This document shows, in pieces, positions 19,641 through 22,612 of a DNA stretch of 36,614 nucleotides. Position 1 is the first letter of the stretch. Every line of letters starts with the position of its first letter. The DNA comes from a bacterium (lineage in GTDB: Bacteria; Babelota; Babeliae; Babelales; Vermiphilaceae), in NCBI GenBank assembly GCA_030626185.1, contig DAOUPL010000001.1, positions 1-36,614 of the forward strand, written 5' to 3'. The position numbers and the translations under genes were made by a program. The notes below the pieces were generated by a model. That model had not been told where the DNA came from. It did no database searches and worked only from the letters and a program-made list of their open reading frames with translations.

Positions 19641-19762
19641 GGCTATTAAGTTCTTCACAAGTATAACGCAACACGTTACACTTTATTTAAGTTTTTACAC
19701 ACAAAGGATTTTTATGCACAAATTATCAATGTTTGCGTTAAGCGGATTGTTATTTGTAGGAA
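19641..19762 (+). repeat. Direct repeat copy A (about 122 bp): promoter/RBS plus leader-peptide module
   Basis: It aligns without gaps to 22491..22612 (offset exactly 2850 bp) at roughly 80 percent identity. A perfect 26-nt core, AACACGTTACACTTTATTTAAGTTTT, lies at 19670-19695. Confidence 0.9.
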
Positions 19763-20067
19763 GTTGTTTTGCAAGTCAAGAAATAAACATTACGAATCTT
19801 GATAAATATAAAATCCTTAAAGCACTTTTTTACGTAGCGAAACCAAAAGAATTCAACTCTCTACAACAATACAATTCAAAGCATGAATTAACTAATGACC
19901 TCATAGATAACCTTGTAAGACAAAATGGCGGAAGATGGGATTTTTATTGCATTGCTGGAAGATCTTTAGGAATTGATATCAATGGCGATTCTTTTAATCC
20001 ATGGTTTTTTGATCGCTATAACGGTACAGGAACTGCTCAACAAGTTATTGACAACCTACAAACATAA
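19714..20067 (+). CDS. Small secreted hypothetical protein
   Basis: AAAGGA precedes the ATG. The signal peptide is MHKLSMFALSGLLFVGSCFASQ. The gene is followed by a hairpin. I recognise no family. Confidence 0.6.
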   Translation: MHKLSMFALSGLLFVGSCFASQEINITNLDKYKILKALFYVAKPKEFNSLQQYNSKHELTNDLIDNLVRQNGGRWDFYCIAGRSLGIDINGDSFNPWFFDRYNGTGTAQQVIDNLQT

Positions 20068-20096
20068 TTTCTCATGCGTAATACAATAAATATTTA

Positions 20097-20140
20097 TAAA
20101 AATGACCGTGATAATTATATTTAATTACCATGGTCATTTT
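20097..20140. terminator. Hairpin between convergent 19714..20067 and 20153..20536
   Basis: A 12-bp stem pairs AAATGACCGTG (20099-20110 region) with CATGGTCATTTT (20129-20140), with one G-U pair. The loop is 18 nt and AT-rich. The T-runs are short. Confidence 0.45.
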
Positions 20141-20152
20141 AGCAATTTCATT

Positions 20153-20536
20153 TCAACCAAACGGCGTTTCACTTGTTTCAATGGTATATTGATCATTTTC
20201 ATGTTTGATCATGACGTATTGTGGCATTGTTTTACAAACCTTGTCTCGCCAAAAACCTAGTATTTTTACAAGTTCTTTTTGATGGATCTTTAATTTTGTA
20301 GGCACTTTTTCTTCAGAATATTCATCTTCTAAAAAAACATAGTCGCCTTCTTTTTCTAAAAAAACGGTATTACCACCAACGCATTCTGTGGTAGGGTTTA
20401 AAATCCACTCTTTAAAAGATGATCCTAAACACCCTTCGTTATCAGTAAGAAAAATTCCAAGAGTATCCATTTCGATAGAGCTTCCTCCATCATAAAAGTA
20501 AGAATTTCCTGTATAGCGTAATTTAACGTAATTCAT
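20153..20536 (-). CDS. Putative cognate immunity protein for the upstream EndoU-like toxin
   Basis: 127 aa, acidic, with no signal peptide. Its start codon overlaps the toxin stop (ATGA at 20533-20536), which indicates translational coupling. The assignment rests on context only. Confidence 0.5.
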   Translation of the reverse strand: MNYVKLRYTGNSYFYDGGSSIEMDTLGIFLTDNEGCLGSSFKEWILNPTTECVGGNTVFLEKEGDYVFLEDEYSEEKVPTKLKIHQKELVKILGFWRDKVCKTMPQYVMIKHENDQYTIETSETPFG

Positions 20537-22374
20537 CTTTTTATTACCTTTTCTATAATGGGATAAAGTGTTTTTAAATGTCCTTTTTTAGTAAAAATCA
20601 TGCCGATCTCTATATTATTTTTACTAAAACCTCTTGCTAAGTAGTTGCCATTAGAAAGTTCTTTAGCTTTACTGCTTTTGCTTAAAAAGTCTTTATAGGC
20701 TTCACAAAATATCCCCATTACTTGTTCCCATGTCAAGTTTGATGGAAAAAAAGTTGCCCCTTTTTTTATTATTTTTCCATTATAAACAAGGTCAACTTGA
20801 TAAACACCATTTTTTAATATTCTTTTATTTATAAATTTAATTATTCCGCTTTTTTCAATTTCTTGTAAGTAATCTAAATGCCATCCTCCTAGACGTGATA
20901 TTCCATTTTTATTTGATTTAAGATGTATACCAAAAAAATGTTCAAAGTTAAATTTAATAAATTTATTTTTAAATTCAGCGAATCCTTTTAGTTTTCCATT
21001 AAACATATCTTTAAGTTTTGCAATTTGTGGGGCAAGTTTATCCATAAATTGTTTTTGAAAAACCTCAAAAGTTGGGCGACAAACTTCAGCAGCTTTCTTT
21101 GCTACAGAACCAATTTGTCTCGCTTTTTCACGATAGTGCATTGTAACACCTTCTGCTGTTGCAACAGCATATTCAACTGCTGGATCCGTCATAAGGGATT
21201 CAACAATAGAATTCAGTAATGGTTTCATACGAGAACATAATTTAAAGCCAAGATCAAAAGCTTTGCCAATTAACACCCATTCAACAGCAAAAGCTGTAGA
21301 ATTTTTTGCAATGTTACGATTGGATGTTGCAGCTAGTTGTACAGCACAAGAGTCAAACATAAACTTGCACTGACCATAAAGTTCTTGTGAATATTTAAGT
21401 GTTCCAGGGTAATCACCCGTTAGCATTAAAAGGTCAAATTTCACTCGAATGCCAACTACTTTGCCAATAGCTAAAAGTAAACTTCCAGCTCCGTGGCAAA
21501 AATTTTGTGTTGTTTCTATTGGATGTCGAACCACATTACCAATAAATGCTCCTGTATTGTAAATACCTTCCTTAATTCCTTCAGCAACACCTTTTGCTAT
21601 TTCTAATGCTTCGTGACAAAAAGTTACCCATTTATTTGCAATCTCTTTTTCATGACGAACATTCGCTTCTATACCAATTGCAGCACCATGGCCGACAGCA
21701 TCAAGAAAAAATTGGCAATCAGGAGCTTGTTGATAAACATCTACAAGCTCTGATGCCTGTGAAAGTTGATTAACAAATTTTTTGTGAAGATTATATTCTG
21801 ACGTATCGTTAAACTTGTGAGTAATTTGTTGTTTTGTAATATCGTACGATTGTGCAAATTCAATAACGTGATTATCAATCGGTATCGATCGTACTGCTTG
21901 CTTTTTTTGTTGCAGCTCATCGTAAAATTGATTAGCGCGCCCTTGTAAGCCCTTGGTATAACCACCAAAAAATCTTCCTAATAATTTAAAAACACTGCCT
22001 TTATTACAAAATTTTTTATGTAGAGCAATAATAGCTTCTTCGTAACCTGGCAATGTTTTTGCGTACTCTACAAATTCATCCGACATAAATTGACTATCTT
22101 CTTCAAAAACATCTTTTTCTGAATATTTATAACAAGTAAAATACTCTTTAAGTTGTGAAGCAGAAAGTTTAGAAAGATCTATTTGACGAGAATACGTTAC
22201 TCGTGGGGATTTGTGCGTACGCATGCCTGATCGGAAATCAGAAAAATTGTTATGATAATTGTGTGTATTGGCTTGATTAAGTGTTATAGAAAGATCTGGA
22301 GAAGAGTTTAATAAAGCACTACAAATAAACAGCAAAAACATGATTATTTTATATTTTTTCTCTTTCTTTTCCAT
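20533..22374 (-). CDS. Signal-peptide protein with C-terminal bacterial EndoU-like ribonuclease toxin domain
   Basis: The last 136 aa (20536..20943) read EHFFGIH..GISRLGGWH...NGVYQVDLVYNGKIIKKGATFFPSNLTWEQVMGIFCEAYKD...GNYLARGFSKNNIEIGMIFTKKGHLKTLYPI. This matches the EndoU_bacteria pattern as I remember it: H.F.G...GxH, K..TFFP..W..e.V...I.eAy, G..I......G.i.T.YP. The N-terminus has a hydrophobic leader, KIIMFLLFICSALL. The start is uncertain (ATG 22374, ATG 22341 or TTG 22392). Confidence 0.65.
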   Translation of the reverse strand: MEKKEKKYKIIMFLLFICSALLNSSPDLSITLNQANTHNYHNNFSDFRSGMRTHKSPRVTYSRQIDLSKLSASQLKEYFTCYKYSEKDVFEEDSQFMSDEFVEYAKTLPGYEEAIIALHKKFCNKGSVFKLLGRFFGGYTKGLQGRANQFYDELQQKKQAVRSIPIDNHVIEFAQSYDITKQQITHKFNDTSEYNLHKKFVNQLSQASELVDVYQQAPDCQFFLDAVGHGAAIGIEANVRHEKEIANKWVTFCHEALEIAKGVAEGIKEGIYNTGAFIGNVVRHPIETTQNFCHGAGSLLLAIGKVVGIRVKFDLLMLTGDYPGTLKYSQELYGQCKFMFDSCAVQLAATSNRNIAKNSTAFAVEWVLIGKAFDLGFKLCSRMKPLLNSIVESLMTDPAVEYAVATAEGVTMHYREKARQIGSVAKKAAEVCRPTFEVFQKQFMDKLAPQIAKLKDMFNGKLKGFAEFKNKFIKFNFEHFFGIHLKSNKNGISRLGGWHLDYLQEIEKSGIIKFINKRILKNGVYQVDLVYNGKIIKKGATFFPSNLTWEQVMGIFCEAYKDFLSKSSKAKELSNGNYLARGFSKNNIEIGMIFTKKGHLKTLYPIIEKVIKR

Positions 22375-22490
22375 AGCGCTATCGTAGTACAAGAAATAGG
22401 TGTTTACAAACTTGTATTAACAACAATAAAGTAGTTTTCACTAAAGGCAAAACTAATTACTTTGCTGTAACATACTTTGGCATAAGATTA

Positions 22491-22612
22491 AACTATTAAG
22501 TTATTCACAAGTATCATGTAACACGTTACACTTTATTTAAGTTTTCAAACAAAAAGGACAAAAATGAACCAATTATCAATACTTGCATTAAGTGGATTAT
22601 TAGTTGTAGGAA
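22491..22612 (+). repeat. Direct repeat copy B (about 122 bp), upstream of and into the tmk ORF
   Basis: This is the partner of 19641..19762, with the identical 26-nt core at 22520-22545. It includes AAAGGA, the ATG and the first 16 codons (MNQLSILALSGLLVVG versus MHKLSMFALSGLLFVG). Confidence 0.9.

Follow-up and report, generated by a model that had tools for sequence, protein, structure and literature searches.

A chimeric promoter-leader repeat encloses an EndoU toxin module between a fadD-like gene and tmk in a Dependentiae genome

Related recombination systems

In Rhs, CdiA and MafB toxins, displacement of the C-terminal tip and the building of arrays of orphan toxin-immunity modules proceed by homologous recombination through a short conserved segment of the gene (PMC2935791, Jackson et al. 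2009; PMC3150448, Poole et al. 2011), and for Rhs displacement a circular intermediate has been proposed (PMC2935791). Here we describe a locus at which a promoter joined to signal-peptide codons may have played the part of such a segment. It lies on contig DAOUPL010000001.1 of a member of the Dependentiae (family Vermiphilaceae; assembly GCA_030626185.1), of which positions 1 to 36,614 were analysed as one 36,614-nucleotide (nt) window. Between a fadD-like gene and the thymidylate kinase gene tmk, two direct repeats enclose a gene for a secreted protein of 117 amino acids (aa), an immunity candidate and a gene for an EndoU-type toxin. As in Rhs, CdiA and MafB, cargo with a toxin and an immunity gene would have entered by homology, older content pushed downstream would have kept the segment, direct repeats would have resulted and no integrase would have taken part; this array-building displacement appears to be the closest described process in mechanism. 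The segment here, however, is the promoter and signal-peptide codons of an unrelated small gene and not the 3' part of a toxin core, the content displaced downstream is the housekeeping pair tmk-holB with the toxin as a passenger on the opposite strand, and the recombination is read from a comparison of three genomes.

Phytoplasma SVM proteins and Mycoplasma Vsp and Vpma proteins also join a near-identical 5' region and signal peptide to unrelated mature proteins, and it is the 5' module that recombines. These are large multigene families, Vpma with Xer-type site-specific inversion and the phytoplasmas with mobile units, whereas the repeats described here occur in two copies only, with no recombinase and no evidence of phase variation. 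The toxin resembles EndoU polymorphic toxins with CdiI-type immunity in its conserved N-terminus, its exchangeable tips, the small gene overlapping its stop codon and a related array in a metagenome contig (L020, below). It differs from them in its Dependentiae host, in an N-terminal region of ~470 aa that is uncharacterised and in having a Sec-type signal sequence as the sole export feature seen; no CdiB, T6SS or T7SS partner was seen nearby, where no search aimed at one was made, and the immunity candidate (127 aa) matches none of the known immunity families in the libraries searched. Campbell-type integration leaves an insert flanked by direct repeats as long as the segment of homology, as seen here, but both repeats are the same promoter/tmk-leader chimera and not reciprocal hybrids, and neither a circle nor a donor was identified.

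Dependentiae are uncultured, reduced-genome symbionts of protists in which the gain and turnover of accessory genes are poorly known. The locus provides a concrete case, anchored in synteny, in which an EndoU toxin-immunity module and a secreted-protein gene appear to have entered a housekeeping junction without a mobile-element recombinase. The duplicated promoter/signal-peptide module would at the same time have re-supplied a promoter to an essential operon.

A repeat with two ancestries

A repeat search over the window returned an ungapped direct repeat of 125 nt, with copy A at 19638-19762 and copy B at 22488-22612 (both plus strand), spaced by 2850 nt and 82% identical; counted position by position, the copies agree at 103/125 sites. 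The edges are sharp, since just outside them only 7/38 positions agree on the left and 8/38 on the right. Among other ungapped 125-nt pairs in the window, the best unrelated one scores 67/125, and a second leader repeat described below (86/125) is the sole other outlier. An earlier note on this DNA, made from the letters alone, had reported direct repeats of 122 bp, 2850 bp apart and ~80% identical, each with an AAAGGA ribosome-binding site (RBS), an ATG and 16 leader codons, and a perfect 26-nt core in common; all of this was recovered, with the repeat slightly longer. The core AACACGTTACACTTTATTTAAGTTTT (19670-19695 in copy A, 22520-22545 in copy B, both plus strand) occurs exactly twice in the window even with up to 3 mismatches allowed, against an expectation of 0. 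With 22 mismatches spread over 125 positions, however, an uninterrupted match of 26 bases or more would arise by chance with p = 0.077; taken alone, the core falls short of significance and constitutes no signal separate from the repeat.

Homologues of tmk assign the window to Dependentiae/Babeliales. Close relatives in the searchable data number two, L003 (Logan SRR16995659) and L005 (JGI 3300037483), both syntenic with the window over tens of kilobases. Over seven proteins the window shares 77.7% and 75.9% amino-acid identity with them, and they share 81.4% with each other, so the window lineage branches first and is the outgroup of the three. In both relatives the order is fadD (minus strand), a promoter with a 135/136-aa ankyrin-like secreted gene, 64 nt, the leader-tmk fusion and holB. 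Their fadD-tmk interval thus contains one promoter copy and two leaders, and it lacks the toxin, the immunity gene and a second promoter. The earlier note had proposed looking in relatives for an empty site with a single repeat copy; L003 and L005 have a single promoter copy and no toxin, but the slot is occupied by another small secreted gene and carries two leaders, so neither offers a clean empty site. In two more distant members of the Dependentiae (tmk ~50% identical) the fadD-like gene faces a leaderless tmk, directly adjacent in L022 and with one 61-aa ferredoxin-like gene between them in L023, so the fadD-tmk junction is ancestral and everything between was added later. Protein-based locus searches with tmk in genome contigs and with holB in metagenome contigs returned no close relatives.

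We compared each copy with the small-gene locus of L003 (L003A) and with the L003 tmk leader and its upstream region (L003B). In the promoter part, copies A and B agree at 48/54 positions and resemble the small gene (A-L003A 41/54, B-L003A 39/54), while B and L003B agree at 19/54, which is the chance level. In the leader core (nt 12-49 of the open reading frame (ORF)) the resemblance shifts: A-B identity is 32/38, A-L003B 28/38 and B-L003B 29/38, as compared with 19/38 for A-L003A. Around this core copy A again follows its own orthologue L003A, at 11/11 positions before it and 16/20 after it, and in the latter 20 nt A and B agree at 2/20. An nhmmer profile of the repeat divides in the same manner, with model positions 9-96 matching the L003 small-gene locus and positions 64-125 matching the L003 tmk leader (E = 2.7e-5). 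By these comparisons both copies carry one and the same chimera, with a promoter half orthologous to the small-gene promoter of L003 and L005 and a leader half orthologous to the tmk leader. The 117-aa protein has a mosaic signal peptide as well, in which SMFALSGLLFVGS derives from the tmk leader and is flanked by small-gene sequence, MHK(L) before it and CFASQE after it. From the alignments, recombination seems to have taken place between the two local leaders, and the fusion now stands in both copies. Since A-B identity in the promoter part (89%) exceeds that between A and its orthologue (76%), the duplication, or the last conversion between the copies, is suggested to postdate the split from L003.

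Each copy comprises a sigma-70-like site, a 5' untranslated region (5'UTR) of ~30 nt with the AAAGGA RBS, an ATG and 16 hydrophobic signal-peptide codons. In copy A these codons begin the 117-aa gene (ATG 19714); in copy B the same module stands before the tmk leader ORF (ATG 22564). The promoter-like sites (19654-19682 in copy A and 22504-22532 in copy B, plus strand) both read TTCACA, a 17-nt spacer and TACACT, with a 9/12 match to consensus. The 26-nt core spans the spacer end, the -10 hexamer and the expected start region of transcription. At the orthologous L003 site, TTAACA-17-TATGCT is the only promoter-like match in that 900-nt region. Judged by consensus and by conserved position, both copies are predicted to contain a sigma-70-type promoter. 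The earlier suggestion of a shared operator or promoter in the core thus keeps its promoter part, through the overlap with the promoter-like -10 and start region. Its operator part is not supported: the inverted repeat GTAAC-AC-GTTAC is complete in copy B, as had been noted, and is paired at 4/5 positions in copy A, but it is not conserved in the promoters of the relatives, and with the perfect run itself at the p value given above it was rejected as an operator. Rfam searches gave no RNA family in the repeat region, and only chance matches, which fell on a terminator hairpin.

Some further features of these sites were seen. The 11-mer ACAAGTATAAC at 19658-19668, inside the plus-strand spacer, is invariant in the three orthologous promoters (L003 9472-9482, L005 3460-3470). 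Read from the minus strand it gives TATACT, which might be the -10 hexamer of the divergently transcribed fadD-like gene; the copy B counterpart is GATACT, facing the toxin operon. The fadD-tmk intergenic region of L022 contains ACGCAACACG...GTTACA at 5913-5935 and has a 10-mer in common with copy A (window 19665-19682), which is probably a chance match since closer relatives do not have that sequence.

Downstream of copy B, the tmk leader ORF (22564-22704, plus strand) has 47 codons, is signal-peptide-like and runs in frame into tmk with no stop codon between. The corresponding leaders have 41 codons in L003 (10001-10123) and 31 codons in L005 (3990-4082), so indels among these three diverged genomes have not closed the frame; Tmk proteins of more distant Dependentiae (205-216 aa) have no leader. 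From this distribution the tmk leader is old and common to the relatives, and only the promoter half of copy B would be new at that position. The canonical tmk gene (22705-23331, plus strand) has a GTG start at 22705 preceded by AAAGGA at 22693-22698, the relatives have GAGGA and ATG at the same place, and the Pfam Thymidylate_kin match starts at residue 59 of the long tmk ORF. A long, membrane-targeted Tmk isoform made from the leader is possible.

The enclosed genes

The genes between the copies are those listed in the earlier note: the 117-aa gene (19714-20067, plus strand) is followed by a hairpin and then, on the opposite strand, by the 127-aa immunity candidate (20153-20536) and the toxin gene (20533-22374), all between the fadD-like gene and tmk. 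G+C content is 0.27-0.37 in this islet as compared with 0.36-0.44 in the flanking genes. The hairpin (20099-20140; -19.1 kcal/mol, z = -4.5) lies between the convergent 117-aa and immunity genes and is a probable bidirectional terminator. Two stretches, the 75 nt that separate copy B from the toxin spacer and the spacer downstream of the 117-aa gene, gave no matches anywhere in a search for their origin.

The 117-aa protein consists of the hybrid signal peptide and a domain of ~95 aa from an unannotated family. Its alignment with the 135-aa protein of the relatives covers the signal peptide only, and homology between the two proteins was rejected. The mature part (19783-20064) belongs to a widespread domain family with 255 representative clusters at E <= 1e-3 and the consensus IDIxGLDK..VL.ALYN.A.PQG...GR..KVDLSGD.F.PW.YDRDNG.GAA; the majority of its members have no signal peptide, and some are tandem repeats. 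The closest homologue with a signal peptide, P0126, adjoins mutS in an unrelated context. Neither the 117-aa nor the 127-aa protein had a match in sequence searches of Pfam, PHROGs, NCBIfam, PADLOC and the PDB, and the scanned homologues of the 117-aa protein had no curated family above threshold (P0125 has a sub-threshold Pfam PPC match and P0130 a weak PHROGs match to a family of unknown function). The AlphaFold2 (AF2) model of the 117-aa protein is confident, with a predicted local distance difference test (pLDDT) score of 87.5; a fold search gave no PDB match and only uncharacterised phage proteins in BFVD.

The toxin of 613 aa (613-619) begins with a signal sequence, continues in a conserved region of ~470 aa and ends in an EndoU nuclease domain. 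Over residues 483-612 this domain matches Pfam PF14436 (EndoU_bacteria; profile positions 5-128 of 129) with a score of 36.1 bits (cut-off 25.3; E = 1e-8), which bears out the EndoU likeness claimed earlier. By eye, the C-terminus contains FEHFFG, GGWH and KKGATFFP, which seem to resemble the motifs of that family; a PDB sequence search with the toxin gave no match. Two homologues show that the toxin is polymorphic, its conserved N-terminal region being joined to alternative tips: P0123 is 62% identical and has the same tip, and P0124 is 74% identical over the N-terminal 62% and has a different one. The P0124-type tip also ends the first ORF of contig L020 (1-3995; JGI 3300037483, the sample of L005), where it is followed by a CdiI-like gene (PF28101). 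L020 is a tandem array of polymorphic toxins, in the order alternative tip, CdiI-like gene, orphan immunity-like gene, EndoU toxin (62% identical to ours), partner of the 127-aa ORF (79% identical) and a further toxin start. The last 40 codons of the orphan immunity-like gene are identical to those of the true partner, and the junction of immunity 3' end, spacer and toxin 5' end is repeated. Because tips interchange and such an array exists, the toxin-immunity module is a member of a recombining multi-copy family, present here as a single unit. The 127-aa ORF overlaps the toxin stop codon by 4 nt; its 79%-identical partner likewise follows an EndoU toxin in L020, where the alternative tip precedes a different protein. 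The AF2 single-sequence model of the 127-aa protein (pLDDT 45.9) is unusable.

Origin of the arrangement

On balance we favour a history in which the cargo was inserted, and the promoter duplicated, through leader-to-leader recombination, leaving copy B to drive tmk-holB. The repeat would be a duplicated expression module made up of a sigma-70-type promoter, a short 5'UTR, an RBS and 16 Sec-type signal-peptide codons. Copy A would be the resident promoter beside the fadD-like gene, driving the small secreted-protein gene with a transcript that ends at the hairpin, and copy B would be the promoter of the tmk-holB-dciA operon, directly upstream of the older in-frame tmk leader. Recombination between the two local leaders would have fused the small-gene promoter to the tmk-leader core, and a single process would have both duplicated the chimeric module and introduced the 117-aa gene body, the terminator, the EndoU toxin and the immunity gene, with no integrase involved. 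Two routes would fit, namely a circular intermediate entering through promoter-leader homology, or a local tandem duplication followed by deletion between leaders. As to expression, L003 has no terminator between the small-gene promoter and tmk. In the window the hairpin terminator and the opposing toxin operon separate tmk from the fadD-side promoter, so tmk-holB-dciA would need a promoter of its own, and we infer that it depends on that of copy B. The first downstream member this would serve is holB (DNA polymerase III delta'; 23321-24109, plus strand), which overlaps the end of tmk.

These results modify what had been proposed for the locus. An islet interrupting housekeeping genes is an apt description of the toxin-immunity pair, which was inserted at a place where the syntenic L003 and L005 have none. 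The islet is not everything between the repeats, however: the copy A promoter and the start and end of the signal peptide are resident, orthologous sequence. The insertion is upheld, but of the two routes proposed, a single-crossover (Campbell-type) event and a local duplication, neither is favoured over the other, and one Campbell event with a foreign circle would not suffice without at least one further leader-by-leader recombination.

A second leader repeat lies 11 kb away, on the minus strand. Its 83-nt copies (7320-7402 and 8226-8308; 87% identical, spacing 906 nt) consist of the last 14 nt of an upstream pilin-like gene, an AAGGA RBS, a start codon and 18 signal-peptide codons (MKF[V/I]LFLLICLSNVVVAS). 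They bracket a 289-aa ankyrin-repeat gene (7412-8281, minus strand), and the downstream copy starts an unrelated 88-aa ORF (7109-7375, minus strand). This repeats the geometry of the main locus and suggests more than one leader-mediated insertion in this genome. Local alignments tested against shuffled sequences show no relation between the gene bodies downstream of the two copies, with p = 0.64 at the main locus and p = 0.95 at the second. A decayed whole-gene duplication, or a hidden extension of the repeat (NLDKYKILKA against NLEKILQA), was accordingly rejected.

Several points weigh against the history we favour. Promoter function is read from the 9/12 consensus match, and the region contains 15 promoter-like sites as compared with 14.8 expected from shuffled sequence. 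L005 has a weak promoter-like site in the spacer between the small gene and tmk, and transcription of tmk in the relatives may therefore not require read-through from the promoter upstream. The informative sites are mixed and do not separate a resident from an incoming copy, and since both copies are the same chimera at least two recombination steps are needed, the order of which is not recoverable. The comparison comprises three genomes of the clade, with no complete genome for a genome-wide census. Finally, because the window genome is the outgroup, the toxin and the second promoter could be ancestral and have been lost in the other two.

This last point leads to a rather improbable alternative, in which the ancestor of the three already had both copies and the cargo, L003 and L005 lost the second promoter and the toxin, and the copies in the window were homogenised by gene conversion. 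With the window branching outside L003 and L005, parsimony cannot polarise the difference; the presence of the tmk leader in all three genomes makes at least the leader duplication old, and a patchy mosaic is typical of concerted evolution. Against this, the 64-nt spacer of the relatives retains no trace of a promoter (19/54, the chance level), repeated conversion must be invoked to explain why A-B identity in the promoter part exceeds that of orthologues (89% and 76%), and the toxin-family array in the sample of L005 sits on another contig and not at this site. A one-step Campbell-type integration of a circle carrying promoter, leader and the 117-aa, immunity and toxin genes, with the repeats as hybrid attachment sites, is also unlikely. 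In its favour, the direct repeats bracket the cargo exactly, the cargo gene and the tmk leader are homologous over the length of the repeats and nowhere else, and recombinase genes and tRNAs are lacking. A donor from a related lineage could account for copies that differ at 18% of positions, circles could be excised from the repeat-bounded arrays in which toxin modules sit, and for Rhs, too, tip displacement through a circular intermediate has been proposed (PMC2935791). Such an event, however, needs a recipient with a promoter directly before the tmk leader, a state found in neither close relative. Because both copies have the tmk-type core, the donor small-gene leader must already have carried it, which implies an earlier leader-by-leader exchange. 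Furthermore, the informative sites lack the reciprocal left/right hybrid pattern, and no circular form was found, nor, in scans of the collections, a donor locus, P0126 beside mutS being of unrelated context.

Two other explanations concern the repeat itself. A dispersed regulatory repeat or miniature mobile element present at both positions by chance is very improbable. It draws on nothing beyond the existence of two copies and on the second, unrelated leader repeat, which shows that such repeats recur. In contrast, the nhmmer profile, like the mismatch-tolerant core search, matches the two copies and the orthologous sites only (36.6-kb window and ~65 kb of related loci), and scanning the metagenome and genome contig collections with a degenerate promoter pattern gave 0 matches. 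The unit is also anchored in frame to start codons, and it lacks terminal inverted repeats as well as target-site duplications. The dispersed element was rejected on the profile and core searches, and the dozens of copies that the earlier note had named as a sign of such an element were absent from all the sequence reached. The absence of an integrase or transposase, also noted earlier, was borne out by a domain search that found no recombinase domain in the three enclosed ORFs, and the window contains no tRNA or tmRNA; an integrase island, an insertion sequence element and a miniature inverted-repeat transposable element are ruled out because their defining features were tested for and are not present. 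Finally, the arrangement might have been a chimeric contig joined at the repeat, and short-read metagenome contigs of other samples do end near the repeats and within the toxin gene. Copies only 82% identical would not be collapsed in assembly, though, and independent assemblies of several other samples give both junctions at 99.9-100% identity (L024, covering 18890-20696, and L001, covering 21706-29417; each contig covers one junction, and none spans both copies), so we consider an artefact excluded, its probability being negligible.

Recombination between leaders with duplication of the promoter, taken alone, is an instance of known recombination principles and a fairly ordinary, recombination-driven gene gain and not a new system. 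As a tentative extension, which we advance as speculation, the promoter-plus-signal-peptide leaders of Dependentiae might be portable homology handles, an N-terminal counterpart of Rhs/CdiA C-terminal displacement, by which effector genes and passenger toxin-immunity modules are inserted, stacked and swapped without an integrase; the leftover leader fused to tmk, open in three genomes, would then be a trace of this and possibly yield a membrane-targeted Tmk. If this were general, it would explain how effector repertoires diversify, and in-frame leader repeats would be a simple sequence signature of recent gene gain.

The fadD-like gene on the other side of copy A (18076-19614, minus strand) encodes an AMP-binding enzyme (Pfam AMP-binding, E = 4e-81). 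Its likely start is the ATG at 19614 (MVNEQKRF), and the orthologues begin MNQEQKRF and MKQEQKRF. Among scaffolds from ENA metagenomes, the ends of L002 (1-200), L026 (1-32) and L027 (1-30) find no counterpart in the window and resemble chimeric ends from assembly; the 200 foreign nt of L002 have been called in frame with the 3' part of tmk. Two further repeats in the window lie within ORFs on the minus strand: a short-period tandem repeat with a unit of ~30 nt at 29363-29540 (ORF 28886-29647), and a repeat with an offset of 117 nt at 15162-15395 (ORF 14515-15912).

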